From: Elusimicrobiota bacterium
GTDB taxonomy: Bacteria > Elusimicrobiota > Elusimicrobia > UBA1565 > UBA9628
Direction: 5' to 3'
DNA length: 56,102 bases
NCBI GenBank assembly: GCA_043745445.1
Contig: JAYTSX010000239.1
Span: forward strand, 1-56,102
Below the pieces are notes generated by a model. The model worked only from the letters and a program-made list of their open reading frames with translations. It was not told where the DNA came from and ran no database searches. Shown piece after piece: positions 3,442-30,415 of the stretch (position 1 is its first letter; every line of letters begins with the position of its first letter). A program made the position numbers and the translations under genes.

Positions 3442-6009
<2,568 letters not shown>

Positions 6010-10862: not shown

Positions 10863-11801
10863 ATGTTTTTCGAGGGGCCGGAAAAAAAGGTGGAGCTCGC
10901 GATGGTCGCGGGGCTCCCATCTCTGCGGGCCCGAGGCCATGATTATTGGAAGGGAATCGTCGCCAAGGCGAATGCCCAAGTTCTTTCCACGATTTCCAAT
11001 GAATCCATGGATGCGTATCTGCTGTCGGAGTCGAGCCTGTTCGTCACTGACACCTGGCTGACGATGATCACTTGCGGCCGCACGGATCTGGTCGCCGCCG
11101 TCATCGGGCTCGTCGACGATTTCGGCACGGACGCATTCCAATATCTCGTTTACGAGCGTAAAAACGCGCATCACCAGGAATACCAGCCTTCAAACTTCTT
11201 CGACGACTGTCGCCGCTTGACCGACCGCATGCCGGCGAAGTCATATCGTTTTGGAGACGGGGACGATCATCATGTTTTTCTTTTCCATCTCGATAAACCC
11301 TATGCGCCGGTTGCGGAGGATTTGACGCTGGAGATCCTGATGCATGGGATCGATCCGCAGGCGTCTCGCGTCTTCATGAGCGGCCCCGCCCGCAAAAAGG
11401 ATTTTATCAAGGAGAAATCCGGCGTCTGGTCTATTCTTCCGGGATTCCAGGTGGACGATTACCTTTTCGAGCCGATGGGCTACTCGCTCAACGCGATTCG
11501 CGGCTCCAAGTATTACACGATTCATGTGACGCCGCAGAAAATCGGTTCGTATGTGAGCTTTGAGACGAACGCGGTCGAAGGAGACGCGAACGAGACGGTC
11601 ACGCGCGTGCTTGAGCTCTTTAAGCCGCAATCCTGCGATGTAATTCTCTTCCAGCCGCAGACCTCGCGCCAAAAGATCCGCTGCTACTATCCGATCAAGC
11701 GGGCGGTTCGCCAAAATCTGTCCTGCGGCTATCGCGTGACCTTTGATCATCATTTCAAACCCGTCGAAGGGGCGGCCCCGGCCGTGGAGATCGTGCTGTG
11801 A
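10863..11801 (+). CDS. speD: S-adenosylmethionine decarboxylase proenzyme, eukaryote-type (class 2-like)
   Basis: 312 aa. FFEGPEKKVE, autoprocessing-site context AYLLSESSLFV, ITCGRT, TLEILM, FEPMGYSLN, YYTIHVTPQKIGSYVSFETN, FKP. These are collinear with the hallmark blocks of human/yeast AdoMetDC. Confidence 0.85.
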   Translation: MFFEGPEKKVELAMVAGLPSLRARGHDYWKGIVAKANAQVLSTISNESMDAYLLSESSLFVTDTWLTMITCGRTDLVAAVIGLVDDFGTDAFQYLVYERKNAHHQEYQPSNFFDDCRRLTDRMPAKSYRFGDGDDHHVFLFHLDKPYAPVAEDLTLEILMHGIDPQASRVFMSGPARKKDFIKEKSGVWSILPGFQVDDYLFEPMGYSLNAIRGSKYYTIHVTPQKIGSYVSFETNAVEGDANETVTRVLELFKPQSCDVILFQPQTSRQKIRCYYPIKRAVRQNLSCGYRVTFDHHFKPVEGAAPAVEIVL

Positions 11802-12646
11802 ACAAAAAGACCGTTTGGGTTGACGAGGTCTACCAGGGCATCGTTCGGACGAGCTTCAAGTTGAAGAAGCGGCTTTTTAAAGGCAAGAGTCCCTTCCAAA
11901 CCGTCGAGGTCGTGGAGACCGCCGGCCACGGGAAGCTTTTGCTGATCGACGGCATGACGATGGTGTCCGAACGCGATGAATTCGTCTACCATGAGATGAT
12001 CGCGCATCCTGCCTTGTTCCTGCACCCCAATCCTCGCCGCGTCCTCGTTATCGGCGGTGGTGATGGCGGCACCGTGCGCGAGGTCTTAAAGCACCGCTCC
12101 GTTGAGCGGTGTGTCCTTGTGGAAATCGATGGATTGGTGGTGGAGGCTTCGCGCAAGCACATCCCCCAAACCGCTGGCGCTCTTTGCGACACGCGCGCCC
12201 ATGTTCTCATCGACGACGGCGTGAAGTTCGTCGCGCAGACGAGCGAGACTTTCGACGTGGTGATTGTGGACTCGACCGAGCCGTTCGGACCGGCCGCCGA
12301 GTTGTTCGGCCCCACGTTTTACAAGAACGTAAAGAGAATCTTGACTGCGGACGGTGTCGTGGCGAGCCAGGCCGGCTCCCCCTTCTACGAAATCTCGACG
12401 ATCAAGAACCTATTCAAGATTACGACGAAGATCTTTCCCATCGTCGAGGTCTGTCTGTTCAACAATCTGACCTATCCGGGCGGTCTTTGGGCGTTTACCT
12501 TCGCCACGAAGGGGTTGCATCCGGTGAAAGATTTCCGTCCGGCGCGCGTGAAGGCTTCGAAAATCAAGCTGCGCTGGTATAACGCGGACATTCACGCCGC
12601 CTGTTTCGCGCTCCCGAACTTCCTGAGAGAAGCGATCGGCCGTTAG
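11798..12646 (+). CDS. speE: spermidine synthase (aminopropyltransferase)
   Basis: 282 aa. SPFQTVEVVET..GKLLLIDG, VIGGGDGGTVREV, VIVDSTEPFGPA. GTGA overlap with the AdoMetDC stop. Confidence 0.93.
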   Translation: MNKKTVWVDEVYQGIVRTSFKLKKRLFKGKSPFQTVEVVETAGHGKLLLIDGMTMVSERDEFVYHEMIAHPALFLHPNPRRVLVIGGGDGGTVREVLKHRSVERCVLVEIDGLVVEASRKHIPQTAGALCDTRAHVLIDDGVKFVAQTSETFDVVIVDSTEPFGPAAELFGPTFYKNVKRILTADGVVASQAGSPFYEISTIKNLFKITTKIFPIVEVCLFNNLTYPGGLWAFTFATKGLHPVKDFRPARVKASKIKLRWYNADIHAACFALPNFLREAIGR

Positions 12647-18025: not shown

Positions 18026-19375
18026 ATGAACAATGCCTCGTCTCTGCTGGCCGCTATCAAGAAGGGCAAATTCCATACGGTGATCCTCGCGATGCCCGAT
18101 ATGCAGGGCCGATGGATCGGGAAGCGGTTCACCGCCCGGCACTTCGCGAAATCGGTGGTGAAGCACGGGACGCACGCCTGCGCCTATCTGCTCACGGTGG
18201 ACATGGAAATGGATCCGGTGCCCGGCTTTGCGCTGACGAGCTGGGACAAAGGCTACCAAGACTTTGCGCTCATGCCCGATTTCTCGACGTGGCGGGGCCT
18301 GGCCTGGCTGCCCGGGACCGCACTCGTCGTCGCCGATGTGATGGACGCCAAGCACGAGCATCCGATCAAGGTTTCGCCGCGGCAAATCCTGAAAGATCAG
18401 GTCGCGCGCGCGGCGACGAAAGGCTGGTCGCTTAAAATGGCGACCGAACTTGAGTTCTATCTGCTGCGGGAAACCTACGAGTCGGCGCAGAAGAAGAACT
18501 GGACCGGCCTCGAGCATTTCGGCACCTACATCGAGGACTATCACATACTCCAGGGCACTCGCGAGGAGCCGGTGGTGGGGGACATTCGCAATCTCATGGA
18601 AGCCTCCGGCGTGCCGATTGAGAACTCGAAGGGCGAGTGGGGCCCCGGGCAGCATGAGATCAATCTCGAATACTCCGATCCAGTCCAAATGGCCGACCTC
18701 CATACCGTGTACAAGCACGGCGCCAAGGAGATCGCCATGCAGAAAGGCGCCGCGCTGACCTTCATGGCGAAATACAGCGACAAGCTTGCGGGCTCTTCGT
18801 GTCACATCCACGCGAGTCTGTGGGATAAAGCCGGCCGGCGCTCGATGTTCTCGTCGGGAGGAAAGCCCACGAAGGAGTTTCGGTGGTTTCTGGGCGGCGC
18901 AATGTCTCTGGCGCGCGAGTTTTCACTCTTCTTTGCCCCCACAATTAACTCCTATAAAAGGTACCAGGCCGCGACCTTCGCGCCGACGCGCATCGCTTGG
19001 GCGCGCGACAACCGGACGTGCGGCTTTCGCGTAGTCGGGGAGGGGGACTCCCTGCGCATTGAAAACCGCATTCCCGGAGCCGACGCCAACCCGTATCTGG
19101 CGCTGGCCGCCACCATCGCCGCGGGCCTGTACGGCATCGAGAAAAAAATCGATCCGCCGGCGGAGCTGGCGGGGGACGCCTATAAAGCAAAGGTGTCGCC
19201 GGTGCCAAAAACCTTGCACGAAGCGATCGGACTTTTCGAGAAGTCCAACGCAGCCCGCGCCGCCTTCGGCGACGAGGTGTTCGAGCATTATCTTCACGCC
19301 GCCAAGGCCGAGCAGGCTGCCTCCGACCGGGCGGTCACGGACTGGGAGCGCGGCCGATACTTCGAGCGTGTGTGA
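18026..19375 (+). CDS. glutamine synthetase family protein (GlnA3/PuuA-like gamma-glutamyl-amine ligase type)
   Basis: 449 aa. GS catalytic blocks (ELEFYL, KGEWGPGQHEINL, GSSCHIHASLW, NSYKRY, R.ENRIPGADANPYLA). Lacks the adenylylation-loop context of classical GlnA. Confidence 0.85.
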   Translation: MNNASSLLAAIKKGKFHTVILAMPDMQGRWIGKRFTARHFAKSVVKHGTHACAYLLTVDMEMDPVPGFALTSWDKGYQDFALMPDFSTWRGLAWLPGTALVVADVMDAKHEHPIKVSPRQILKDQVARAATKGWSLKMATELEFYLLRETYESAQKKNWTGLEHFGTYIEDYHILQGTREEPVVGDIRNLMEASGVPIENSKGEWGPGQHEINLEYSDPVQMADLHTVYKHGAKEIAMQKGAALTFMAKYSDKLAGSSCHIHASLWDKAGRRSMFSSGGKPTKEFRWFLGGAMSLAREFSLFFAPTINSYKRYQAATFAPTRIAWARDNRTCGFRVVGEGDSLRIENRIPGADANPYLALAATIAAGLYGIEKKIDPPAELAGDAYKAKVSPVPKTLHEAIGLFEKSNAARAAFGDEVFEHYLHAAKAEQAASDRAVTDWERGRYFERV

Positions 19376-19446
19376 GACAAGTGAACTTTCGCGCAGGCCG
19401 TCCGTATGATAAGGAGGAATGCCGGGAAATCGGCCAAGGGGGAAGA

Positions 19447-19887
19447 ATGAACAAGATGAACTGGGCTTTGCTGGTTATGATTTTGATGGTGTCTGTTACC
19501 GCCCGTGCCGGCGATCCTGCGACCGATGACACGAGCGGCGACGGCGTGCAGAAGCAGGAAGGGGAGAAGCCCGGTCTAGAAAAGAAGGGTGAGCGGCTCG
19601 AGAAGCAGGGCGAGCGCAAGGAAAAGAAGGGCGAACGCATGGAAAATCAGGGTGAGCGGCGTGAAAAGCGCGGCGACAAACTTGACGAGCAGGGTGAGCG
19701 TATGCAGGAGCGCGGGGAGAAGCTCCAGGAAAAGGCCGATAAACTTGAGGGCGAAGGCAAGGAAAAGGCCGCGGATCGGGTAGAGAAAAAGGGCGAGCGC
19801 ATGGAAAAACAGGGCGAGCGCAGCGAGCGCCGGGGTGAGCGCCGCGAGAAACGCGGTGAGAACATGCAGCGCCGCGGCCGCCGCTAA
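19447..19887 (+). CDS. secreted, highly charged heptad-repeat protein
   Basis: Internal ATG of track ORF 19372-19887, preceded by GGGGGAAG. Signal peptide MNKMNWALLVMILMVSVTARAGD, then about 14 tandem heptads of type E-K-x-G-E-R-x. Confidence 0.7.
   Translation: MNKMNWALLVMILMVSVTARAGDPATDDTSGDGVQKQEGEKPGLEKKGERLEKQGERKEKKGERMENQGERREKRGDKLDEQGERMQERGEKLQEKADKLEGEGKEKAADRVEKKGERMEKQGERSERRGERREKRGENMQRRGRR
19579..19884 (+). repeat. degenerate 21-bp in-frame tandem repeat (coding heptads)
   Basis: GAGAAGCAGGGCGAGCGCAAG-like units reiterated; one 15-bp irregular unit (AADRV). Confidence 0.8.
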
Positions 19888-19967: not shown

Positions 19968-21086
19968 ATGAAAATCGCGCTCGAGATCACGGGAGCTCTT
20001 GCCGGGGGCGGCTCCCGCCGCCACACGGAAATGATCATCCGCGCGCTTGCCGCCGAGGACAAGAAGAACGAGTATGTCCTGTACGGTGCGTTTTGGAAGG
20101 ATTCTGAGCGCTTGAGGGCGCTCGATTTGCCCCGTCAGGCAAATTTTAAAATCGTAACGCTCCACGCTCCGCAGCGTCTGCTTTTGCCCGCCGAGGAGTA
20201 CCTCGGCCTACGCTGGCAGGAAAACCGGCTCCGAAGTCTGGGCGTGGACATGGTCCACGGCTTTTCCAACTGGCTTCCTAGGCTTGACCGGACGCCCTCG
20301 ACGATGACACTCGCCTATGCAACCGACGACCGGCACGCGGGCTGGGGCCGGTTTTATTTCAACACGCTTCTGCCGCGCTCGGCGCGCCAAGCGGACAAGG
20401 TGTTGGCGATCTCAGGCGTCGCGCGCGACGCGGCGATCAAGAACTGGGGTCTTGATGCGAAGAAAGTCGAGGTCGTTTATCTCGGCGCGCCGCTCGACGA
20501 GTTCAAACCGGACGATTCTCCGCGCGATCCCGCGGAGATCCCGTACTTTCTTTTCGTCGGCGTCACGCGCCCGCACAAAAATCCGAGGGTCCTCCTGGAG
20601 GCCTTCGTCTTATTCAAGAAGCTTCATCCCCAGGCGCCGCATCGCTTTGTCATTTGCGGCGCCCCGGGCGAGGAGCAGAATGCACTTGAGGACATCCTCA
20701 CCCGCGCGGGCTTAAGCGCCGCCGTGACCTTCGCGGGAAATGTCGCGCAGTCGAAGATCTACCCGTATTACAAGAACGCCCTGGCCTATGTGTCGGCGTC
20801 GATCCTTGAGGGTTTTCATCTTCCGCTTGCCGAGGCCATGGCCTGCGGCATCCCGACCGTAGTCGCGCGAGGAGGGGCCCAAACCGAGATCGTCGCGGGA
20901 GCGGGCCTTCATGTGGACGCGACCGCGGAGGATCTTGCCCGGGGCATGGCGACGGTGGCATTTGACTCGGAATTAAGGGCCCGCATGCGGGCCCAGGGGC
21001 TTGAGCGCTGCAAAGACTTCTCGTGGCAAGCGGCCGCCCGCAAGATGCTCGCGGCTTTCGAAGAAGTCTACGCCGCGAAGCGTTGA
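19968..21086 (+). CDS. glycosyltransferase family 4 (GT-B, RfaG-like)
   Basis: 372 aa. C-terminal E-x7-E region (..SILEGFHLPLAEAMACGIPTVV..) typical of GT4. Confidence 0.85.
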   Translation: MKIALEITGALAGGGSRRHTEMIIRALAAEDKKNEYVLYGAFWKDSERLRALDLPRQANFKIVTLHAPQRLLLPAEEYLGLRWQENRLRSLGVDMVHGFSNWLPRLDRTPSTMTLAYATDDRHAGWGRFYFNTLLPRSARQADKVLAISGVARDAAIKNWGLDAKKVEVVYLGAPLDEFKPDDSPRDPAEIPYFLFVGVTRPHKNPRVLLEAFVLFKKLHPQAPHRFVICGAPGEEQNALEDILTRAGLSAAVTFAGNVAQSKIYPYYKNALAYVSASILEGFHLPLAEAMACGIPTVVARGGAQTEIVAGAGLHVDATAEDLARGMATVAFDSELRARMRAQGLERCKDFSWQAAARKMLAAFEEVYAAKR

Positions 21087-21093
21087 GCGGGGC

Positions 21094-22209
21094 TTAAGGC
21101 TTCCAATCTTTGGGCTTGGGGGCCAAGCCGAACCAGTGGGCGATTGCGGCGGCGATTCTTTCCGATGCGCGTCCGTCCCCGTAAGGGTTTTTGGCGCGGC
21201 TCATTCGGCGGAAAAGAGCGGGATTCCTGAGTAGTTTGCCGGCCCAGAGTTTGAGTTTTTTTGGATCGAGGCCGACAAGGCGACCCGCGCCGCTCGAGAT
21301 GACCTCCGGCCGCTCGGTATTGCGGCGCACGACGAGAATGGGTTTCCGAAGGCAGACCGCCTCTTCTTGAAGGCCGCCGGAGTCCGTGATCAGGAAGGCG
21401 GCTCTGTTGAGCAGGCCCAAAAATTCAGGGTAGGGCTGAGGTTTCAGGAGATGGATTCGGGGATGGCGCAGCATGCGCTTCGCGGTCCCCAGGACGGCTG
21501 GATTGGGGTGCACCGGATAGACGAGCACCAGATTCTCGTGCTTGCGCACGAGATCAAGTAAGGCCGTGTAAATTTTATTGAGCGGCGCCCCGTGTATCTC
21601 TCGGCGGTGCAAGGTCACGAGGACCTCCTTCACGTTGGCGGCGCTCCGCGTCGGGCGAACACGGCCCTTAGCCCAACGCAGCGCGTCCACGACCGTATTG
21701 CCCGTCGTGAGAACCGTCCTGCCATGAAGACCTTCACGGCTGATATTTTTACGCGCCTGCGAAGTGGGGGGGAACACAAGCGAGGAGAGGAGGTCGATGA
21801 ATATCCGATTTTGCTCCTCGGGGAATGGATCATTTAAATTGAATGAGCGCAGGCCGGCCTCGACGTGGGCGACCGGGATGCCGCGTTCGCAGGCGCATAA
21901 CGCGGCCGCCGCGGCGGTCGTCGTGTCTCCCTGCACGACTACCATGTCCGGCTTTAATCGGGCGAGCAGCGGACCCAGGGTCGCGATGACCCGCTTGGCG
22001 ACGGCGTCGGGGGACTGCCCCGGGCGCATCAGGTCGAGGTCAAAATCGGGCTTGAGGGCAAAAAGGGTCAGGACCTGATCGAGGAGCTCCCGGTGCTGGG
22101 CCGTCGCGCACACAAAGGTTTTGAGCCCCTTGCGGCGGCGCAGGGCCGCCACGACGGGAGCGAGCTTGATGGCCTCGGGCCGGGTGCCCATGACCACGAG
22201 GATTTTCAT
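21094..22209 (-). CDS. wecB: UDP-N-acetylglucosamine 2-epimerase (non-hydrolysing type)
   Basis: Track ORF trimmed to the ATG at 22209 (MKILVVMGTRPEAIKLAPVV), giving a 4-nt overlap with the upstream gene stop. HVEAGLRS, DSGGLQEEA motifs. Confidence 0.9.
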   Translation of the reverse strand: MKILVVMGTRPEAIKLAPVVAALRRRKGLKTFVCATAQHRELLDQVLTLFALKPDFDLDLMRPGQSPDAVAKRVIATLGPLLARLKPDMVVVQGDTTTAAAAALCACERGIPVAHVEAGLRSFNLNDPFPEEQNRIFIDLLSSLVFPPTSQARKNISREGLHGRTVLTTGNTVVDALRWAKGRVRPTRSAANVKEVLVTLHRREIHGAPLNKIYTALLDLVRKHENLVLVYPVHPNPAVLGTAKRMLRHPRIHLLKPQPYPEFLGLLNRAAFLITDSGGLQEEAVCLRKPILVVRRNTERPEVISSGAGRLVGLDPKKLKLWAGKLLRNPALFRRMSRAKNPYGDGRASERIAAAIAHWFGLAPKPKDWKP

Positions 22210-23270
22210 TCGCGAGTTTTGCGCAGCCCGCGGCTGACGAAGGTCCAGGCGATGAGCTTGTACAGCAGGCGCATGCCGACGTTGGCGTCCCATTCGTCCT
22301 TGCCGTCCTGGGCGGGGGAAACCTCGTTGAGGTCAAAGCCGATAATTTTTCGTCCTGAGCGCGCGACGAGGCCGATCAGGTGCACGGCCTCCGCGAGCTC
22401 AAGACCGCCGGGGACGGGTGTCCCCGTGTGCGGACAGAGCTTGGGGTCCAGGCCGTCGATGTCGAAGGTGATCCAGACCTGCTGGGGCAGCGCGGCCACG
22501 ATCTCTTCGGCCGTCTTCGTCCACGGCTCGCCGGAAAAACGGCGCTTGGCGAGGTCTCGGTCGTAGAAGACCTTGGCGCGCGGGCCGAGAGCGCGGGTGA
22601 ACTCGTACTCCTGCTCGCAAAAATCACGAATACCGACCTGGACTATCCGGGAGATCTGAGGAATGTTCTCCATCGCGTTGTACATGATAGACGCGTGCGA
22701 CCATGTGAAGCCTTCATAGGCGACGCGCGTGTCGGAGTGAGCGTCGAAATGCAAAAGCCCGAAATCTCCGCATGTCTCAGCGGCGGCGCGAAAGGCGCCG
22801 TAGGGAACGCTGTGGTCCCCGCCGACGATTCCCACAATTTTTCCGGCGGTCATGAGGCCCAGGGCCTCGCGATAGACCCAATCATTCAGCTTTTTACCCA
22901 GCTCGTTCGTCGTTTTAAGCGCCTTCTGTAGATTCTTATTCCCTTCAATACGCCCGCCTTCCTTAATGACCTTCTGCGCGGCCGCCTTCGCGGTCTTGTT
23001 CCAGGCCCTCACTTCCTTCGACTCGGGGCGCATAAAGATTCCCGGCTCGTACGGCCGGTGAACCTCGCCGTCAAACAAGTCGACCTGAGCGCTGGCCTCA
23101 AGGATCGCGGCCGGACCCTTAGAGGTGCCGCCACCGTAAGAGGTCGTCGCCTCCCAGGGAACGGGGATGAGGACGAGCGCCGCGTCCTTTTCCTCATGGG
23201 GGAGGCCGAAAACTCCGGTGTCCTCCCCGGGCGCGGCGTTGGGATCGAAATCGAGGGTGTTTTTGATCAT
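22206..23270 (-). CDS. arginase-family ureohydrolase, agmatinase-like
   Basis: Start at ATG 23270 (MIKNTLDF..) gives an ATGA overlap with the FkbM stop. Mn-ligand motifs are intact: VGGDHSVPYG, HFDAHSDTR, TFDIDGLDP....TGTPVPGG. Confidence 0.85.
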   Translation of the reverse strand: MIKNTLDFDPNAAPGEDTGVFGLPHEEKDAALVLIPVPWEATTSYGGGTSKGPAAILEASAQVDLFDGEVHRPYEPGIFMRPESKEVRAWNKTAKAAAQKVIKEGGRIEGNKNLQKALKTTNELGKKLNDWVYREALGLMTAGKIVGIVGGDHSVPYGAFRAAAETCGDFGLLHFDAHSDTRVAYEGFTWSHASIMYNAMENIPQISRIVQVGIRDFCEQEYEFTRALGPRAKVFYDRDLAKRRFSGEPWTKTAEEIVAALPQQVWITFDIDGLDPKLCPHTGTPVPGGLELAEAVHLIGLVARSGRKIIGFDLNEVSPAQDGKDEWDANVGMRLLYKLIAWTFVSRGLRKTRE

Positions 23271-24100
23271 AATTTTGGCCAGGCGTAGGTCAGTCCGCGC
23301 CAATCGCGCCACTCGTAGCCGAATTGCGTGAGGATGGCGTCGACGCCTTCGGTATCGGGCACGGTGTCGCGTTCGATGGTGATGCGCGGGCGAAAGCGGC
23401 GAATCGTTTCGGCCGCGCCTTTCAATGCGGCGGGCACGACGCCCTCGATGTCGATCTTGAGCAGATCCAAACGCGTCAGGCCGCGCTCGCGGGCGACGGC
23501 GTCGACGGTTTTCATCGGGACGGACACGGAGAGGCCTGAGCCTCGGACCAGGGAGTGATTGATGCCGCGCTCGTGAACGAACAGCTCGACTGTTCCATCG
23601 CGGTCTCCGGCGGCGGCCTGAATGCAGTCAAGCTGGGACAAATTGTTGCGGCGAGCGTTGCCCTCGAGTCGCCGGAAATTATCCGGGTGCGGCTCGACGG
23701 CGATCACTTTTCCCGTCGGGCCGACCAAGGCCGCCGCGCGCGTGGCGAAAATGCCGAGGTTGGCGCCCAGATCTACGACCGTTTGGCCCAGACCGGGGCG
23801 AAAGCCGGTCTCACGCTCATAGTCGCCTTCCGCGACGATTGAATACAACGGGTCAAACGCGGTGTGCAGATCAAGATCGAGCGTGAGGCCGTCGGGAGTC
23901 TCGACCTCCACCGGAAGGTCGGACAGCCCCAGGCGCTTGAGCCAGGTGAGCGCGCGCAGGTGCCGATCGCCCCAGCGCATGAATATGAAAAAAAAGTAAT
24001 AGACGCTGAGATAGGCCAGGCGCCGACCGCGCCCTCCGCGCAAAGAGGCGTGGAAGCGGTAATTCGCGCGGATGTTCCGACACGCCTCGGCGAGGGCCAC
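23267..24100 (-). CDS. FkbM-family SAM-dependent methyltransferase
   Basis: VVDLGANLGIFA....KVIAVEPHPDNFRRL......LDLLKIDIEGVVPAALKGA.....RPRITIE. The GTG start at 24100 is uncertain; an ATG at 23980 is possible. Confidence 0.8.
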   Translation of the reverse strand: MALAEACRNIRANYRFHASLRGGRGRRLAYLSVYYFFFIFMRWGDRHLRALTWLKRLGLSDLPVEVETPDGLTLDLDLHTAFDPLYSIVAEGDYERETGFRPGLGQTVVDLGANLGIFATRAAALVGPTGKVIAVEPHPDNFRRLEGNARRNNLSQLDCIQAAAGDRDGTVELFVHERGINHSLVRGSGLSVSVPMKTVDAVARERGLTRLDLLKIDIEGVVPAALKGAAETIRRFRPRITIERDTVPDTEGVDAILTQFGYEWRDWRGLTYAWPKL

Positions 24101-24127
24101 AGCCGTGATCTTAGTAAATCCGACTCT

Positions 24128-24982
24128 TCAGAAAAAACCGTCGAGGAAGCTCTCGACGAGCAGCGGGAGATCCTCGGAGTAGCCGCCCTCGAGCGCCGCG
24201 AAGCGGGGAAGCTTCGTCTGCGCGAGCAAGGATCCGATGCGCTTGAAGGTCGCGCGGTCGAGCTTGAGCCCGGCGATTGGGTCTTCTTTGTAGGCGTCGA
24301 ACCCGGCGGAAACGGCGAGCAGGTCGGGCTTCGTGTCGAGCAAAAGCCCGAAAACAGGTTCGAAGCTCTCAAGCCAGCGATGTCCGTTGCTTCCCGCCTC
24401 AAGGGGTATGTTCCAGCAGTTGGCGCGGGTATCGAGGCCCGTTCCGGGGTAGAGAGGATACTGATGTAGGGACAGAAACATCGTATTTTCGCGGCCGAGG
24501 ACGAGCTCCTGGGTTCCGTCGCCGTGGTGCACGTCGAAATCGACGATGGCGACCTTTAGCCCGGGCTTGGTCTTTTGTAGCCGCGCCATGGCCAGAGCCA
24601 CATTATTTAAATAGCAGAAGCCGGCGACTTTGTCTTTGCCGGCGTGGTGGCCGGGGGGGCGCATCAGGGAGAAGGCGGGCTCGCCGGCGAGCGCGCAATC
24701 CGCGGCGGAGAGGGCGCCGGACACGCTGATGAGGCTGATGTCGGCGATGCTCGGATAGAACGGGGTGTCCTCGTCCTGGAAAGTCCCTAAGCGGATCGAG
24801 GCGAGGTGGTTCTCGCCGTGAAGGAGAAGAACATCGGTGTCGACGGCCTTGACCGTTGGCCGCTCCGGAGCATGGCCGGCGGCGCGGAGGCGCTCGAAGG
24901 TCTTCTTAACGCGAAACGGCGCCTCGTGGTGTCCCGAGGCGCCGTATTCGGCGGTCTTGAGGTCGGAAAAAACCCGACCCAT
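24128..24982 (-). CDS. histone deacetylase-family amidohydrolase (acetylpolyamine amidohydrolase / AcuC-like)
   Basis: 284 aa. MRPPGHHAG, VDFDVHHGDGTQ, SAGFDAYKEDP, LEGGY. The full Zn/catalytic motif set is present. Confidence 0.88.
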   Translation of the reverse strand: MGRVFSDLKTAEYGASGHHEAPFRVKKTFERLRAAGHAPERPTVKAVDTDVLLLHGENHLASIRLGTFQDEDTPFYPSIADISLISVSGALSAADCALAGEPAFSLMRPPGHHAGKDKVAGFCYLNNVALAMARLQKTKPGLKVAIVDFDVHHGDGTQELVLGRENTMFLSLHQYPLYPGTGLDTRANCWNIPLEAGSNGHRWLESFEPVFGLLLDTKPDLLAVSAGFDAYKEDPIAGLKLDRATFKRIGSLLAQTKLPRFAALEGGYSEDLPLLVESFLDGFF

Positions 24983-24989
24983 AAGATCT

Positions 24990-26048
24990 TTACCGGAGAG
25001 CGGCCGGAATCTTGGCTTTCTCGTCGTTGAGCAGCGCGTTGAAGCGGCGCTCGCGCCGCTTCTTCCAGTTGCCCTTGTGCCAGCCGTAGCCGGCCAGGAC
25101 CGGGAGCGCGATGGTGGCTTCAGAGAAGACCATCTGCTCGTCGGTGACCGCGACCTTGCCCCACGAGCACGCCTCGCGCAAAGTCGAGCCGGAGAGCGCG
25201 CCGTCGCGCTCGTCGGCTACGGTGATTTGCACCGCGTATTTGTGCATGATGGGATCGAGGCCGATCATTTCGGCGCCGACCGTCACGTCCTGAGCGAAGT
25301 TCTTGGGAACGCCGCCGCCGATCATGAGAAGACCGGTGTCGCCGCAGGCGAGCTTCACGCGAACCAGCTCGCGGAAGTCCTTGGCGGAATCGATCGAGGC
25401 GTGGCTCTCAGGGTTGTGCCACTGGTGGTGGAGGAACCCAAAGCCGGCCGAGCAGTCCGAGAAGGCCGGAATGAAGATCGGAACGCCCTTCTTGTACGCG
25501 GACAGCACGATCGAGTCCTTGACCTTGCACTTCTTCACGAGATACTTGCCCATCTCTTCGACGATCTCGCGCGAGGAGTAAGGCTTGGGCTTTAGGTTTC
25601 CGATGATGTCGGAGATGACGTTGTCGCAGGCGCCGAGCTCATCCTCGTCGATGAAGGTGTCGTAGATGCGGTCGATGCGCGCGCCCCGCAGGGCCATGTC
25701 GTCTTCCCACTTGGAGCCCTTGTAATGCTTGTAGCCGAGGGCTTCGAAGAAGTCCTGGTCGACGATGTTGGCGCCGGTGGAGACGATCGCGTCTACCATG
25801 TTGCTTTCGATCATCTGCCAGACGATCTTCTTCAGCCCGGCGGAGAACAAGGAACCGGCCAGGCAGAGAATCACCCCGCATTCCTTGTCGGCGAGCATCT
25901 TGTCGTAGATGTTGCTCGCGCGCGCGAGGTCGCGGGCGGAGAAGGACATCTTCGAGTAGGCTTCGACGAGAGGACGCATGTCGTGCTTGGTGATATCGAT
26001 GTGTTCGATCTCTTCCTTGAGCAGGTCCGACTTCTTGATATTCGCCAT
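24990..26048 (-). CDS. deoxyhypusine synthase-like protein (DHS / homospermidine-synthase-like)
   Basis: Track ORF trimmed to the ATG at 26048 (MANIKKSDLL..). DHS blocks: CLAGSLFSAGLK, VSTGANIVDQD, IGGGVPKNF, and the catalytic-lysine context EACSWGKV. Confidence 0.85.
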   Translation of the reverse strand: MANIKKSDLLKEEIEHIDITKHDMRPLVEAYSKMSFSARDLARASNIYDKMLADKECGVILCLAGSLFSAGLKKIVWQMIESNMVDAIVSTGANIVDQDFFEALGYKHYKGSKWEDDMALRGARIDRIYDTFIDEDELGACDNVISDIIGNLKPKPYSSREIVEEMGKYLVKKCKVKDSIVLSAYKKGVPIFIPAFSDCSAGFGFLHHQWHNPESHASIDSAKDFRELVRVKLACGDTGLLMIGGGVPKNFAQDVTVGAEMIGLDPIMHKYAVQITVADERDGALSGSTLREACSWGKVAVTDEQMVFSEATIALPVLAGYGWHKGNWKKRRERRFNALLNDEKAKIPAALR

Positions 26049-26115: not shown

Positions 26116-27210
26116 ATGAAGAAATACTTGTTCGGAAATACAATTTTATTTTTACTCCTGGTCCTCGCGGCCGTTCCCGCCGAGGCCAAGCGGCCGAAAA
26201 ATTTCCGGCTGATGTGGAAAAAACCCGTCGCCGCGCAGGCGCCGGAGGAATCCACCAGCACGGTTCAGGGTCCGCCGCTTGTGATGGCCGGCCGTTGGAC
26301 GCCGGAGGTGCGCTCGGCGCTTAATAAATTTCTCGCGGAGCGCGGCAAGGGCGCGCCCGGCTACGACGCGACCAAGCCCCCGGTCGCCGTCCTTCCTTGG
26401 AGCGACGCGCTTGTCGTGGGCGATCCCGCTGAGTTGGTTTTCCTTCGCCTTACGACTCGAGTCGACTTCCATTTCGACGACGACTGGTGGAACATTATTC
26501 CGGTCGCTCATGGGCGCCAGCCCGCGCGCGCGGCCTATAATCACTTTATCTCGCTGTCGAGCGCGGTGTGGCAGTCCCAGCCTGACTACCACCATTATCG
26601 AAAGGAGATTCTCGGAAGCTATCTCGGGCTCTGCCGTGAAGTCGGTCGACGCGAATGCCGCCAGTACCTGATGCGGCTGTGGGCCGGCTGGAAGGAGGGC
26701 GATGCCGTCGAGTACGCGCGGGAGGTCCTCATCGATGAGAAGTCCCGACCCTCGGGTGTCGAGGTTGTCCTCTCCGATGAGGGCGACAAGGCTCCGCTGC
26801 GCATTCGCCGCGGTCTGCGCTTAATCCCGGAGATGCGCGACCTCGCCCAGAAACTCCGGGCGGCCGGCATGGATGTCTGGATCGTCGACGACGTGCCTCA
26901 GCCGTCGCTCTCGGCCGCCGCGGCGGATTACGGCATCGACCCGAGCCGGGTCGTCGGCATTCGCGCAGGTCCCGATGGCGCGCGCTACTCCGCGTCGGTG
27001 CTCAGACCCGTGCCGACCCGCAGCGGCAAGGCGGAGATTATGAAGGCGTCGGTGGGACGGCCCCCCGATTTCGCCCTCGGCCGCGACGCCGCCGACGCCG
27101 ATTTGCTGTCTTACGGTGACGGCTTGCGCGTCATCCTGTCCGGAGACAAAGAACTCGAAGCGAAGGCCAAGGAAAAGGGCTGGCTGCTCCAACCATCCCT
27201 CGCCCATTAG
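26116..27210 (+). CDS. hypothetical secreted protein
   Basis: 364 aa. Clear signal peptide (MKKYLFGNTILFLLLVLAAVPAEA). Distant HAD-IB-like impression only (see rejected). Confidence 0.55.
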   Translation: MKKYLFGNTILFLLLVLAAVPAEAKRPKNFRLMWKKPVAAQAPEESTSTVQGPPLVMAGRWTPEVRSALNKFLAERGKGAPGYDATKPPVAVLPWSDALVVGDPAELVFLRLTTRVDFHFDDDWWNIIPVAHGRQPARAAYNHFISLSSAVWQSQPDYHHYRKEILGSYLGLCREVGRRECRQYLMRLWAGWKEGDAVEYAREVLIDEKSRPSGVEVVLSDEGDKAPLRIRRGLRLIPEMRDLAQKLRAAGMDVWIVDDVPQPSLSAAAADYGIDPSRVVGIRAGPDGARYSASVLRPVPTRSGKAEIMKASVGRPPDFALGRDAADADLLSYGDGLRVILSGDKELEAKAKEKGWLLQPSLAH

Positions 27211-27236
27211 AGGCCTGGCCCCTTTGTTGCCTTTTG

Positions 27237-27266
27237 TTGACAGGCCTGCGTCCGTTGCGCTACAGT
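27237..27266 (+). promoter_or_regulatory. sigma70-type promoter candidate for the hyp-SDR-ALDH operon
   Basis: TTGACA (27237-27242), 18-nt spacer, TACAGT (27261-27266). GGAG SD precedes the ATG at 27293. Confidence 0.5.
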
Positions 27267-27292
27267 GCCCATCTCGCCGAGCAGGAGACGCC

Positions 27293-27595
27293 ATGATTGA
27301 TAAAAATTCGCAAGAAGAGGTCGGGGACCTTTTTGTCACCGAAACTGCCCTCACCCTTAAGCTGATGCCCAGCCGCAAGAGCGGCACCGTCACGATCCGC
27401 TGGTTCGCGAAGGAAGGCGTCACCAATGTCCGTCTGGCGGCGAAGGACATCTCTACGCTTGTCGGGAAGCTGCGCGGCCGCGGGCGGGTCGTGCGCAACT
27501 TGACCGTGACGACCGACAAGGGGCTCGACACCGATCTCGGCAAGACGCGCCTGCGCGAAGCCGTGAAAAAAGCCGGCTTCCTCGTCATCTCATGA
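27293..27595 (+). CDS. hypothetical protein (100 aa)
   Basis: Internal ATG of track ORF 27116-27595, downstream of the promoter-like element. ATGA overlap with the SDR start. No motif recognised. Confidence 0.5.
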   Translation: MIDKNSQEEVGDLFVTETALTLKLMPSRKSGTVTIRWFAKEGVTNVRLAAKDISTLVGKLRGRGRVVRNLTVTTDKGLDTDLGKTRLREAVKKAGFLVIS

Positions 27596-28368
27596 GCGGC
27601 GGGCGCCTCACCGGGAAGGTCGCGCTGATTACCGGCGCCGGATCGGGAATGGGCGCCGAGGCGACGATTCGCTTCGCGCGCGAAGGTGCCAGCGTCGTTG
27701 CGTGCGACATGAATCTGGAAGCCACCCAACGCGTCGTGCAGACGGCACAGGCCGCCGGCGGCAAGGCGATCGCGGTCGCCATGAACGTCGCAAAGGAAGC
27801 CGAGGTGAAGGCCGGTATCGCCACGGCGATCAAGGCGTTCGGCAAATTGGACATTTTGTACAACAATGCGGGTATTTTTCCCAACGACGATAACTCCGTG
27901 ACGAATACGGAAGAAAAAGTCTGGGACACGGTGTTGGCCGTCAATGTCAAAGGCGTTTATCTTGTCTGCAAGCACGGTATTCCGGAGCTGCTCGCCAACG
28001 GCGGCGGTTCGATCATAAATGTGGCGAGCTTTGTGGCCCTGGTCGGTTGCACCGTTCCCCAGGACGCGTACACCGCTTCCAAAGGCGCCGTTCTCGCGCT
28101 CTCGAAGTCGCTGGCCGTTCAGTACGGACCCAAAGGCATTCGCACGAATGCCATCTGCCCAGGTCCGATTGAAACGCCCCTTCTCACGGCGTGGCTTTTT
28201 AAAGAACCCGCTGAGAAAGCCAAACGACTTAATCGTATTCCCATGGGCCGCTTCGGAAAATCCGAGGACATCGTGAACATGGCGTTATATCTGGCGAGCG
28301 ACGAATCGCGTTGGACAAACGGCGCGGCCATGGTCGTCGACGGCGGCATTACGTCCAACTATTTCTAG
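27592..28368 (+). CDS. short-chain dehydrogenase/reductase (classical SDR)
   Basis: GKVALITGAGSGMGAE (TGxxxGxG), NNAG, catalytic YTASKGAV. Confidence 0.92.
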   Translation: MSGGRLTGKVALITGAGSGMGAEATIRFAREGASVVACDMNLEATQRVVQTAQAAGGKAIAVAMNVAKEAEVKAGIATAIKAFGKLDILYNNAGIFPNDDNSVTNTEEKVWDTVLAVNVKGVYLVCKHGIPELLANGGGSIINVASFVALVGCTVPQDAYTASKGAVLALSKSLAVQYGPKGIRTNAICPGPIETPLLTAWLFKEPAEKAKRLNRIPMGRFGKSEDIVNMALYLASDESRWTNGAAMVVDGGITSNYF

Positions 28369-28369
28369 C

Positions 28370-29806
28370 ATGTTGAACAAGTTGTGGATCGACGGTAAAT
28401 TCGTCGCCGCTCGATCGGGCCGGACATTTGCCGTCGTCAACCCGGCCGACGGGTCCCTCTTGGCGCGCGTCGCGGAAGGGGGGGCGGAGGACATAAACGA
28501 CGCGGTCGAAGCCGCGGTCAAGGCCTCCATCGGTCCATGGTCGAAGATGCATGCCCGCGAGCGCGGCAAGATTCTGCTCAAGATCGCCGGACTTATCCGT
28601 CAGAACCTTGATTCTTTGGCTTTGCTCGAGTGCCGCAATGCCGGCAAGCCGCTCGGCGACGCGAAGGACGAGATGGGATTGGCCGCCGATACCTTCGAGT
28701 ACTACGGCGGCGCGGCCAACAAGCATTTCGGCGAAACGATCCCGGTTGCGGGCGCGGGTCTTGATTACACTTTGCGCGAGCCCGTCGGCGTCTGCGGCCT
28801 CATCGTGCCGTGGAACTTCCCACTGGTGATCGCGGCCTGGAAGCTGGGCCCTGCGCTCGCTTGCGGTAATACCGTGGTGTTGAAGCCGTCCCCCGAGACC
28901 CCGTTGACCGCGCTCGCGCTCGCGAAGCTCGCCGCCGAGGCGGGGCTTCCCGCCGGTGTGCTCAATGTGGTCCCCGGGCCGGGCCCCGGCTGCGGCGACG
29001 CGCTCGTCGCCCATCCGCTCGTGCGCAAGATTTCATTTACCGGCTCGACGGCGACCGGCACGGGCATCATGAGGGCGGCGGCCGACGGCATTAAGCGCGT
29101 CTCGCTCGAATTGGGCGGGAAATCCCCCAACATTATCTTTGATGATGCGGATCTCGAACTGTGCGTTGAGAAAACCGTTTGGTCCGTGTTCTACAACGCG
29201 GGCCAGGATTGCTGCGCGCGTTCACGCGTGCTGGTTCACCGCAAGATTCACGATAAGTTCGTCGAGAAACTCGTCGCGCGGACGAGAAAATTCATCGTCG
29301 GCCATCCCGAGAAAAAAGGAACCCAGATCGGACCGATTATTTCCCGGCGGCAGTACGACAAAATTGAGGGATACATCGCCTCCGGCAAGGCGGAAGGCGC
29401 GAAGCTTTTGTGCGGCGGTGTCCGCCCTAAGGGCGTGCCGCCGAAGGGCCATTACCTCACACCGGCCGTATTCGCCGGCACCGACGACAATATGAAAATC
29501 GTCCGCGAAGAAATCTTCGGCCCGGTTCTCGCGGTGATTCCGTTTAAAGACGAGGCCGAGGCGATCAAACTTGCCAACGATTCAGCCTACGGGTTGTCGG
29601 CGAGCCTGTGGACGCGCGATGTCGGCCGTGTTTTGCGCGTGACGCGCGCCGTGCAAAGCGGCGTGATCTCGGTGAACACGAGCTCGAGCGTCCATCTCGA
29701 GGCTCCATTCGGCGGTTATAAGGGCTCCGGGCTCGGCCGCGAGCTCGGCCTGAAGGCGCTCGACCTCTACTCCGAAGTCAAGAACGTCTTTATCTCGAAC
29801 GTTTAG
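28370..29806 (+). CDS. NAD(P)-dependent aldehyde dehydrogenase
   Basis: 478 aa. VPWNFPL, FTGSTATG, ELGGKSP, catalytic-Cys context GQDCCA, EEIFGPV. Confidence 0.93.
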   Translation: MLNKLWIDGKFVAARSGRTFAVVNPADGSLLARVAEGGAEDINDAVEAAVKASIGPWSKMHARERGKILLKIAGLIRQNLDSLALLECRNAGKPLGDAKDEMGLAADTFEYYGGAANKHFGETIPVAGAGLDYTLREPVGVCGLIVPWNFPLVIAAWKLGPALACGNTVVLKPSPETPLTALALAKLAAEAGLPAGVLNVVPGPGPGCGDALVAHPLVRKISFTGSTATGTGIMRAAADGIKRVSLELGGKSPNIIFDDADLELCVEKTVWSVFYNAGQDCCARSRVLVHRKIHDKFVEKLVARTRKFIVGHPEKKGTQIGPIISRRQYDKIEGYIASGKAEGAKLLCGGVRPKGVPPKGHYLTPAVFAGTDDNMKIVREEIFGPVLAVIPFKDEAEAIKLANDSAYGLSASLWTRDVGRVLRVTRAVQSGVISVNTSSSVHLEAPFGGYKGSGLGRELGLKALDLYSEVKNVFISNV

Positions 29807-29833: not shown

Positions 29834-30415
29834 TTAGCTGCGGCGCAGCGTCCAGAAAGTCGGGCGCACGGGTGAGCTGACTTCCATCAAGAATTTAAAA
29901 CCTCGCGCCTCGTACCAGAAACGATTTGACTCCAAAAAAGTTTCGAGGTAAAGCGAGTGCCCGGCTTTTTTGGTCGCGTCGTTGATCAGCGCCGCACCCA
30001 CGCCGCGTCCCTGTGTCGCGGGATGCACCGCGAGGAGGTGCAGATAATCGGAGTCCTTGGTGCGGCGTTCTTTGATCGTGTGGATCAAGGATAGAGCGCG
30101 AAGTAGCGCGGCCGGCTCAATGAGAAACCAAGCCAAGTCAGGAAGATGCCTGATCCAATCCGGTATCCCAGGATTTTCGATTCCTGCCGGGATGACGGCG
30201 GAGAGTCCGACCAGGGCATCACCTTCGAAGGCGCCCGACACGCGTCCTCCCGCTAGCGCGTCGTTGCGGAGCATCGCCTCGAAGAGAGCCGGAAGCCGCC
30301 TACGGCGGAGCGCGTCGTTGGGGAATATGTGCGCGAAGCCCGGATCCTCGCGAAAGGCGGCGGCCGCCAGCGCGGCCGCCTCGGGGAACTCGTTCTCGGC
30401 CAACGGGCGGATCAA
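29834..30415 (-). CDS. GNAT-family N-acetyltransferase
   Basis: 193 aa. AcCoA motif LAVHPATQGRGVGAALI. Confidence 0.8.
   Translation of the reverse strand: MIRPLAENEFPEAAALAAAAFREDPGFAHIFPNDALRRRRLPALFEAMLRNDALAGGRVSGAFEGDALVGLSAVIPAGIENPGIPDWIRHLPDLAWFLIEPAALLRALSLIHTIKERRTKDSDYLHLLAVHPATQGRGVGAALINDATKKAGHSLYLETFLESNRFWYEARGFKFLMEVSSPVRPTFWTLRRS

Follow-up and report, generated by a model that had tools for sequence, protein, structure and literature searches.

Two reports describe the systems closest to the one considered here. In Thermus thermophilus, the enzyme CdmS joins two molecules of agmatine into diamidino-homospermidine, which a ureohydrolase converts to homospermidine (Kobayashi 2024, PMC10981699), and SpeY homologues of diverse phyla do likewise with partner enzymes named DUH and DIH, encoded in speY+duh and speY+dih modules (Li 2026, PMC13625781). 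According to the main text of the second report, all bacterial SpeY proteins tested made N1,N9-bis(guanidino)homospermidine (G44G), eukaryotic deoxyhypusine synthase (DHS) did not, and SpeY and a ureohydrolase are by themselves sufficient to form homospermidine; that main text holds neither the word 'deacetylase' nor the word 'methyltransferase'. The locus analysed here is a cluster of five minus-strand genes, headed by a DHS-like gene, on contig JAYTSX010000239.1 of an Elusimicrobiota bacterium. The whole stretch of DNA that was analysed, referred to below as the window, is 56,102 nt long. The cluster is probably a composite, in which SpeY and an arginase-fold ureohydrolase would form the core of an agmatine-route homospermidine pathway, an HDAC-like gene would be dispensable, and the genes for an FkbM methyltransferase, the epimerase WecB and a facing GT4 glycosyltransferase would be glycan-related passengers. 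The features of the cluster are listed below.

24990-26048, minus strand: SpeY (DHS-like), 352 amino acids, recognised as an open reading frame (ORF) with a profile match
24128-24982, minus strand: HDAC-like protein, 284 amino acids, 7 nt downstream of speY
23267-24100, minus strand: FkbM methyltransferase, 277 amino acids, GTG start, between the HDAC-like and ureohydrolase genes
22206-23270, minus strand: arginase-fold Mn ureohydrolase of the 'ArgA' type, 354 amino acids
21094-22209, minus strand: WecB, non-hydrolysing UDP-GlcNAc 2-epimerase, 371 amino acids, overlapping the stop codon of the ureohydrolase gene (ATGA)
19968-21086, plus strand: GT4 glycosyltransferase, convergent on wecB, PF00534 at 99.6 bits and also PF13439

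From speY to wecB, the minus-strand junctions consist of TAA, 7 nt and ATG; TGA, 27 nt and GTG; an ATGA overlap; and a second ATGA overlap. The stop codons of wecB and the GT4 gene are 7 nt apart. The ORFs and the strand reading agreed with the original prediction, made from the DNA letters of the window, in the order, strand and junctions of the five genes and in the glycosyltransferase converging on their 3' end. The profile hidden Markov model check that it proposed was run on each protein and upheld all five family assignments, with Pfam and NCBIfam scores above the curated cut-offs: PF01916, 310 bits; PF00850, 197 bits; PF05050, 70.6 bits (cut-off 22.7) and TIGR01444, 106.2 bits (cut-off 37.7), for FkbM; PF00491, 183 bits; and TIGR00236, 416 bits (cut-off 210.15), for WecB, which gave 74.6 bits with the NeuC model. 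The motifs it had named were likewise present, namely SWGK in SpeY, the Zn-binding and catalytic residues of the HDAC-like protein and the arginase-fold Mn motifs, and the DHS-like protein clearly belongs to the SpeY equivalog. Seven of eight homologues, which aligned from residue 1, backed the GTG start of FkbM, and longer ORF frames extending upstream were rejected as in-frame extensions rather than better starts.

The spacing of the five genes suggests that they are co-transcribed. A promoter and terminator scan of the region returned 8 terminator-like sites compared with 6.2 +/- 2.7 in shuffled sequences, with no excess over controls. At the 3' end of the HDAC-like gene, immediately ahead of FkbM, the final codons contain an 8-bp hairpin followed by TTTTTT (24159-24138, minus strand); it was considered as an operon break and rejected, being made of codons for a conserved C-terminal peptide.

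The identification of the first gene rests on profile scores and signature residues. SpeY matched the NF002699 equivalog at 561.6 bits (cut-off 500; 561.4 bits, also over the cut-off, in the whole-genome search) and in both searches fell below the cut-offs of the equivalog models for true DHS, four in number, the best score being 303.6 bits against a cut-off of 434. Within 14 control genomes, NF002699 gave any match in 6, T. thermophilus among them, and a match above the cut-off in 2. The binding site of CdmS is described as differing from that of human DHS by Phe204 and Leu286, which replace Asp243 and Asp316, with K299 (human K329) as the catalytic Lys and E293 as the guanidino-binding Glu (PMC10981699). 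In the alignment, Phe203 and Leu285 of the window protein occupy the positions of human Asp243 and Asp316, Glu292 and Lys298 are retained opposite human E323 and K329, with Lys298 in SWGK, and these four residues are invariant across 15 relatives. By homology, the gene is a speY/cdmS, and its product is predicted to couple two agmatines. It has the same NCBIfam equivalog, Phe/Leu signature and catalytic Lys as the enzymes described from T. thermophilus (PMC10981699) and from Caldilinea aerophila, Winogradskyella algicola and others (PMC13625781). It resembles eukaryotic and archaeal DHS in fold, in nicotinamide adenine dinucleotide (NAD)-dependent chemistry and in the catalytic Lys within SWGK, but differs from them in scoring under their equivalog cut-offs, in having Phe and Leu as the equivalents of Asp243 and Asp316, and in its predicted substrate, which is agmatine and not spermidine plus eIF5A.

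As in the published SpeY/CdmS and DUH systems, an arginase-fold ureohydrolase is present in the cluster and a biosynthetic arginine decarboxylase (ADC) in the genome. The Mn-ligand motifs of the ureohydrolase are complete (GGDHS at 150, DAHSD at 176, DIDGLDP at 270 and NEVSP at 315), and SpeA, the arginine decarboxylase, is encoded on contig C264 of the genome (NF003763, 842 bits). The enzyme is presumed from its family and position to be the G44G (diagmatine) ureohydrolase, although the search for ArgA homologues returned only generic names of the 'agmatinase/arginase family' kind. It is the single PF00491 protein of this 93%-complete genome, in which neither a pyruvoyl ADC nor an agmatine deiminase (PF04371) was found, and its strict specificity for G44G is uncertain because of that sole occurrence. 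The kinetic criterion for a DUH, taken from PMC13625781, is activity towards G44G and none towards agmatine. A further user of the same enzyme is suggested by the following genes.

10863-12646, plus strand: S-adenosylmethionine decarboxylase (AdoMetDC)-like gene (PF01536) and an abutting gene for SpeE, an aminopropyltransferase

The AdoMetDC-like gene is of the eukaryote type (PF01536) and scored 160.7 bits, below the TIGR00535 cut-off of 233. Since the genome carrying these two genes has no second ureohydrolase or agmatine deiminase, the ureohydrolase of the SpeY cluster is probably shared with the spermidine branch, as in Thermus, and spermidine may be synthesised via N1-aminopropylagmatine.

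In the proposed pathway, arginine would be decarboxylated to agmatine by SpeA, encoded elsewhere in the genome. Using NAD and an imine at Lys298, SpeY would then transfer the 4-guanidinobutyl group of one agmatine to the primary amine of a second, giving G44G and ammonia, a step modelled by homology on the mechanism in PMC10981699, and the Mn ureohydrolase would remove both guanidino groups from G44G to yield sym-homospermidine and two molecules of urea. The HDAC-like gene would be co-transcribed directly after speY while not being needed by the pathway, and FkbM and wecB, with the convergent GT4 gene, would have been inserted at variable points of the operon and be expressed by read-through. 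As far as can be judged from its sequence, the core is a member of the known SpeY/DUH system, of which every testable defining feature was found. The locus is judged to hold a known pathway in a new phylum, accompanied by probable passenger genes.

Conservation was assessed in the best 80 of 567 confirmed SpeY loci, in which homologues of the window genes were placed by tblastn. Counts refer to the 49 loci, among those with a SpeY at least 68% identical to that of the window (L001-L061), that extend 2.5 kb or more downstream of speY. The 7 kb downstream of speY contain a hydrolase module in 45 of these loci, and in the other 4 none was found in that interval. The occurrence of each gene within this distance was as follows.

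ArgA (ureohydrolase of the window type): 31 of 49 loci, mostly directly adjacent to speY
ArgB (canonical agmatinase type): 7 of 49 loci
NCPAH-like and AIH-like pair: 7 of 49 loci
HDAC-like gene: 22 of 49 loci
WecB after ArgA: 9 of 49 loci
FkbM: 2 of 49 loci (L005 and L009)

ArgB is about 30% identical to ArgA and scored 191 bits with the agmatinase model TIGR01230, above the cut-off. Loci using this canonical type include L033, L044, L048, L049 and L054-L058. The NCPAH-like and AIH-like genes stand in place of the ureohydrolase, directly after speY or after speY and the HDAC-like gene, at L023:1178-4980, L024:7001-10873, L027:7001-10863 and L028:7001-10048. These four sister loci, and not the window, are like the arrangement of SpeY, DIH and a carbamoyl-amidohydrolase described for the Rhizorhabdus wittichii type (PMC13625781); the window uses a ureohydrolase instead and lacks any PF04371 gene, yet three of the four sister loci still keep the HDAC-like gene after speY. 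Judged from gene content, speY+duh and speY+dih+amidohydrolase, both known as modules from the literature, substitute for one another at the same locus in a single bacterial family. A quick SpeY tree, with SH-aLRT support only, requires at least 11 changes of hydrolase type and at least 8 changes in the presence of the HDAC-like gene. The step after SpeY would therefore be interchangeable within one family between a long ureohydrolase, a canonical agmatinase type and a deiminase with an amidohydrolase, which fits the idea of modular transfer put forward in PMC13625781.

The window departs from the published SpeY/DUH systems in three respects, namely the host phylum Elusimicrobiota; the ureohydrolase, which is longer, belongs to a divergent subfamily and scores below the agmatinase cut-off; and the HDAC-like, FkbM and WecB genes interleaved in the operon. 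The closest public relatives of the window are metagenome-assembled genomes labelled Elusimicrobiota. A literature search found no paper joining Elusimicrobia and homospermidine, and one for homospermidine with acetylpolyamine amidohydrolase (APAH) found no description of this arrangement among the papers listed. An agmatine-dependent homospermidine pathway would thus be placed in free-living Elusimicrobiota, an uncultured phylum for which no polyamine literature was found.

The product of the second gene is predicted to be a compact class-IIb-like Zn deacetylase of the HDAC/arginase-deacetylase fold with an intact catalytic set, as His112/His113, Asp150/His152/Asp229 and Tyr268 are invariant in 12 relatives. 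Its sequence is closest to HDAC6 domains and to Protein Data Bank (PDB) entries 5zmp, titled 'lysine deacylase', and 5ji5, with APAHs somewhat lower (188 bits for 5zmp against the family profile and about 162 bits for APAH). An AlphaFold model (pLDDT 87) had as its nearest structures 5zmp (TM 0.90, 34% identity) and 5ji5, a Burkholderia HDAC-superfamily protein, followed by HDAC6 catalytic domain 2 (CD2) and APAH at a TM of about 0.84. We take 5zmp to be cyanobacterial CddA; a literature search for '5ZMP' found no paper.

The gatekeeper residue that follows the GDP motif is described as Glu in the polyamine deacetylase HDAC10 (E274 in zebrafish), Lys in HDAC6 catalytic domain 1 (CD1) and Leu or Met in other HDACs (PMC5454378). 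In the window protein, aligned with 'GDPK' of HDAC6 CD1 and 'GDPL' of CD2, this residue is Ile236, which is invariant in relatives and is not the Glu of the HDAC10 type. The protein shares its fold, a complete Zn-binding and catalytic set and a polyamine-related neighbourhood with the APAH of Mycoplana ramosa (PDB 3q9b, TM 0.84) and with HDAC10. It differs from HDAC10 in the gatekeeper and from APAH in being 57 residues shorter (284 compared with 341 amino acids), a comparison made by overall similarity only. Bacterial APAH is characterised by a length of about 340 residues, a tunnel formed by the dimer and Glu117, which contacts N4 of the substrate. Its closest counterparts in sequence and fold remain 5zmp, 5ji5 and HDAC6 CD2, the last of which also has a hydrophobic gatekeeper; what sets it apart from all three is its linkage to SpeY in a single bacterial family. 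The protein is most likely a broad deacetylase of lysines or amines, akin to 5zmp or HDAC6 CD2.

The arrangement speY-HDAC-ArgA was found in 15 loci, speY-ArgB-HDAC in 4 and speY-HDAC-NCPAH-AIH in 3. The HDAC-like gene was missing from 27 of the 49 related loci, and all five genomes checked with HDAC-like-negative clusters carry only paralogues of 28-31% identity elsewhere. A sample of 301 genomes of the phylum, searched for HDAC-like homologues at E <= 1e-40 and for SpeY at E <= 1e-60, contained 31 HDAC-like-positive and 130 SpeY-positive genomes. Of the latter, 119 were without the HDAC-like gene, including 14 of the window's own family, f1. The gene is judged dispensable for the pathway because of the 27 loci and 119 genomes that do without it. 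Conversely, 20 of the 31 HDAC-like-positive genomes, belonging to other families and with homologues of 41-56% identity, were without SpeY. Thirteen such loci were fetched, and the neighbours scanned in ten of them were housekeeping genes. Eight of the thirteen fall in two recurring rows, RuvC-RuvA-RuvB-(radical SAM)-HDAC-QueH-SpoIID (L180 and L182-L186, with the HDAC-like gene at about 4000-5200 in each) and MsrAB-NT5C-nitroreductase-HDAC-DapA (L178 and L179). A wider search, from which the best 80 of at least 600 stretches were taken, gave mostly proteins of about 40% identity from other phyla (Verrucomicrobiota, Omnitrophota and archaea), and no polyamine neighbours were found among the matches listed. 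The HDAC-like gene is therefore read as a phylum-wide deacetylase kept behind speY by one family. Among the extra genes of the cluster, it alone is genuinely linked to speY, if not in every locus.

On two Bathyarchaeia contigs (L138:562-6819 and L156:6001-10399), an HDAC-like gene of about 40% identity lies 3-5 kb from deoxyhypusine-synthase genes. The PF01916 gene of L156 scored 279 bits and L138 has two DHS-like tblastn matches; the proximity may be a coincidence.

Several findings weigh against the composite reading. The ureohydrolase scored 164.3 bits with the agmatinase model TIGR01230, under the cut-off of 174.3, and was matched in two stretches; with 354 amino acids it is also longer than the characterised diagmatinases, given as 301-313 amino acids in PMC13625781. 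FkbM and wecB both overlap the ureohydrolase gene by ATGA, the overlap between ArgA and WecB persists in 9 loci, and the divergence of FkbM in L005 and L009 (78-81%) follows that of the flanking genes. In family f1, all 11 HDAC-like genes, that of the window included, directly adjoin speY, and their linkage to speY survives three hydrolase architectures.

The last of these points bears on the alternative that survives best, namely that the HDAC-like protein is dedicated to deacetylating polyamines and represents a new type, distinct from both APAH and HDAC10, which would recycle N-acetylated homospermidine, agmatine or putrescine and, with the GNAT acetyltransferase described below, control the polyamine pool in the genus of the window. 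Since a pure passenger is not expected to keep its linkage to speY through three types of hydrolase module, a polyamine-related role stays plausible. The narrow gap between speY and the HDAC-like gene (3-43 nt in 18 loci), the occurrence of the gene in family f1 next to speY or not at all, the restriction of GNAT to HDAC-like-positive genomes and the nearly equal fold similarity to APAH structures and to HDAC6 CD2 all point the same way. The dedicated deacetylase is nevertheless rated as possible rather than likely, as the gatekeeper is an invariant Ile236 where HDAC10 has Glu, the nearest solved structure is titled as a lysine deacylase, the homologues of 41-56% identity in 20 SpeY-less Elusimicrobiota genomes have housekeeping neighbours in the 10 loci scanned, the homologues of about 40% identity listed from other phyla have no polyamine context, and the GNAT link rests on 2-4 independent contrasts only. 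If it is true that a deacetylase linked to SpeY acts on acetyl-polyamines, a new type of bacterial polyamine deacetylase would be represented.

The acetyltransferase in question is the following.

29834-30415, minus strand: small GNAT acetyltransferase, 193 amino acids, about 4 kb upstream of speY, with weak matches to GNAT Pfam families

It sits between the aldehyde dehydrogenase and TatD genes, and its nearest relatives among solved structures, a puromycin N-acetyltransferase and an HPA2-like protein, reach no more than about 36 bits. In the phylum sample, the gene was present in 6 of 301 genomes, all of which belong to the genus of the window and are HDAC-like-positive. Within the genus sample, it was found in 6 of 8 HDAC-positive and 0 of 4 HDAC-negative genomes, and among further genomes searched it was present in 3 of 5 HDAC-positive ones (absent from the locus, present elsewhere) and 0 of 5 HDAC-negative ones. 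On the SpeY tree, this co-variation amounts to only 4 contrasts, of which 2 fall on supported branches; the raw p value (Fisher, 0.003) takes no account of kinship. As a hint only, GNAT may carry out the acetylation that the HDAC-like protein would reverse. The fuller proposal, that the HDAC-like protein is a previously unrecognised bacterial polyamine deacetylase recruited to the speY operon and paired with GNAT in this genus, reversible N-acetylation setting the level of free homospermidine (or agmatine), with FkbM and WecB/GT4 as unrelated glycan genes, is considered doubtful.

In the composite reading, the remaining extra genes belong to the cell envelope. In other Elusimicrobiota, FkbM homologues (50-57% identity) are not located beside speY; the best of them outside the cluster (L168) is located among genes for GT9, two PMT_2 proteins, a Wzx-like flippase and GT2, a lipopolysaccharide-type glycan cluster, and the others are in mixed contexts. 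Beside speY, FkbM occurs only together with WecB and GT4 (three of three loci, counting the window). A recent foreign insertion of FkbM was rejected, as its GC content and third-codon-position GC content (GC3), and its divergence, match those of neighbouring genes. Because composition and divergence track the neighbours in this way, FkbM is interpreted as an old, often lost, lineage-specific insert. In the 9 loci that have WecB, it comes -1 to +2 nt after ArgA; these loci all fall in or beside the closest clade, and 7 of them also carry a GT4 homologue. Their distribution and family roles suggest that FkbM, WecB and GT4 are envelope-glycan genes using the transcription of the operon, and GT4 is probably part of the same glycan module as WecB and not a polyamine gene.

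The junction between the HDAC-like and ureohydrolase genes, where FkbM sits in the window, is an insertion hot spot. In L001 it measures 18 nt and has no insert, and in other loci it holds reverse-strand genes, namely HATPase_c/DUF4325 genes (L025:8917-9960 and L014:8918-10174), a caspase-domain gene (L013:8920-10308) and a 5'-3' exonuclease/Bles03 fusion (L021:8928-10253).

These distributions bear on the idea, raised in the original prediction, that the five genes serve one pathway, either to a methylated or otherwise modified polyamine or to a glycan or protein carrying an aminobutyl, guanidinobutyl or homospermidine group. Its suggestion that the agmatinase-like enzyme works with the DHS-like one through a guanidino intermediate matches the published route from SpeY/CdmS and a ureohydrolase (PMC10981699, PMC13625781). 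Of its further view that the layout is non-standard and points to an unusual polyamine, the guanidino intermediate stands, while the pair itself represents the published homospermidine route and not new polyamine chemistry. The joining of the methyltransferase, epimerase and deacetylase to that pair did not hold up. A common strand, close junctions (gaps of 7 and 27 nt and twice a 4-nt ATGA overlap), the recurrence of the five-gene order in L005 and L009, and the confinement of FkbM to the three loci with WecB and GT4 speak for it. Against this, conservation of the gene neighbourhood, the check set beforehand, was not found, as the complete order was shared by 2 of 49 loci, with the HDAC-like gene in 22, WecB in 9 and FkbM in 2. 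Relatives with a SpeY of 97-98% identity hold nothing (L001) or a reverse-strand HATPase/DUF4325 gene (L025) at the FkbM site, FkbM homologues elsewhere have no polyamine neighbours, WecB is limited to one sub-clade and travels with GT4, most SpeY clusters are without WecB and GT4, and SpeY with a ureohydrolase is enough for homospermidine in the systems published in PMC13625781. A single five-gene pathway is consequently very improbable, given the unconserved order, the variable distribution of FkbM and WecB and the membership of the DHS-like protein in the SpeY equivalog. Tight and overlapping junctions are hence no proof of a common pathway, as two or three of the five coupled genes appear to be variable passengers.

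The last alternative, that the DHS-like gene encodes a genuine deoxyhypusine synthase acting on a translation factor or a homospermidine synthase using spermidine or putrescine, is barely credible, for although PF01916 matches, the fold and catalytic Lys are shared with DHS, and spermidine could come from the products of the AdoMetDC-like and speE genes at a distance of 12 kb, the four DHS equivalog models fall far short of their cut-offs, both Asp residues that discriminate DHS from CdmS are Phe and Leu, and every bacterial SpeY tested in PMC13625781 made G44G where eukaryotic DHS did not.

SpeY-type proteins were also observed outside the bacterial relatives. Contigs labelled Nitrososphaerota/Nitrosotalea encode proteins 67% identical to SpeY of the window (L064:7001-8023, L067:854-1876, L068:1077-2102 and L070:6331-7350), and that of L064, a 1.9-Mb chromosome record, carries the Phe/Leu signature as one row of the SpeY alignment. 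No hydrolase partner was found within 7 kb in these four archaeal loci, and a relaxed tblastn search for hydrolase partners beside the distant SpeY loci L062-L080 found none. PMC13625781 asks whether agmatine-dependent DHS homologues exist in archaea, and these proteins are relevant to that question. Separately, the SpeY matches of Elusimicrobiota family f5 (G190, G230, G238, G096, G220 and G216) and of L075:7001-8059 are each interrupted inside the aligned span by one in-frame stop codon (TAA, TGA or TAG), which could reflect a shorter C-terminus, sequencing error or pseudogenisation.

The window as a whole has a GC content of 53-68% and carries dnaA, dnaN, gyrB and gyrA at its start. The speY cluster is flanked on both sides by plus-strand genes (18026-19887 and 26116-29806) that form a set conserved in many relatives, comprising a glutamine synthetase-like gene, a 171-residue protein, a secreted protein of 364 residues with a faint HAD-like match, a short-chain dehydrogenase/reductase and an aldehyde dehydrogenase. 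The glutamine synthetase-like gene scored below all cut-offs for glutamine synthetase and gamma-glutamylputrescine synthetase, and the aldehyde dehydrogenase resembles betaine/aminobutyraldehyde dehydrogenases. The flanking genes may represent a polyamine-catabolic set, or may merely be conserved in synteny.

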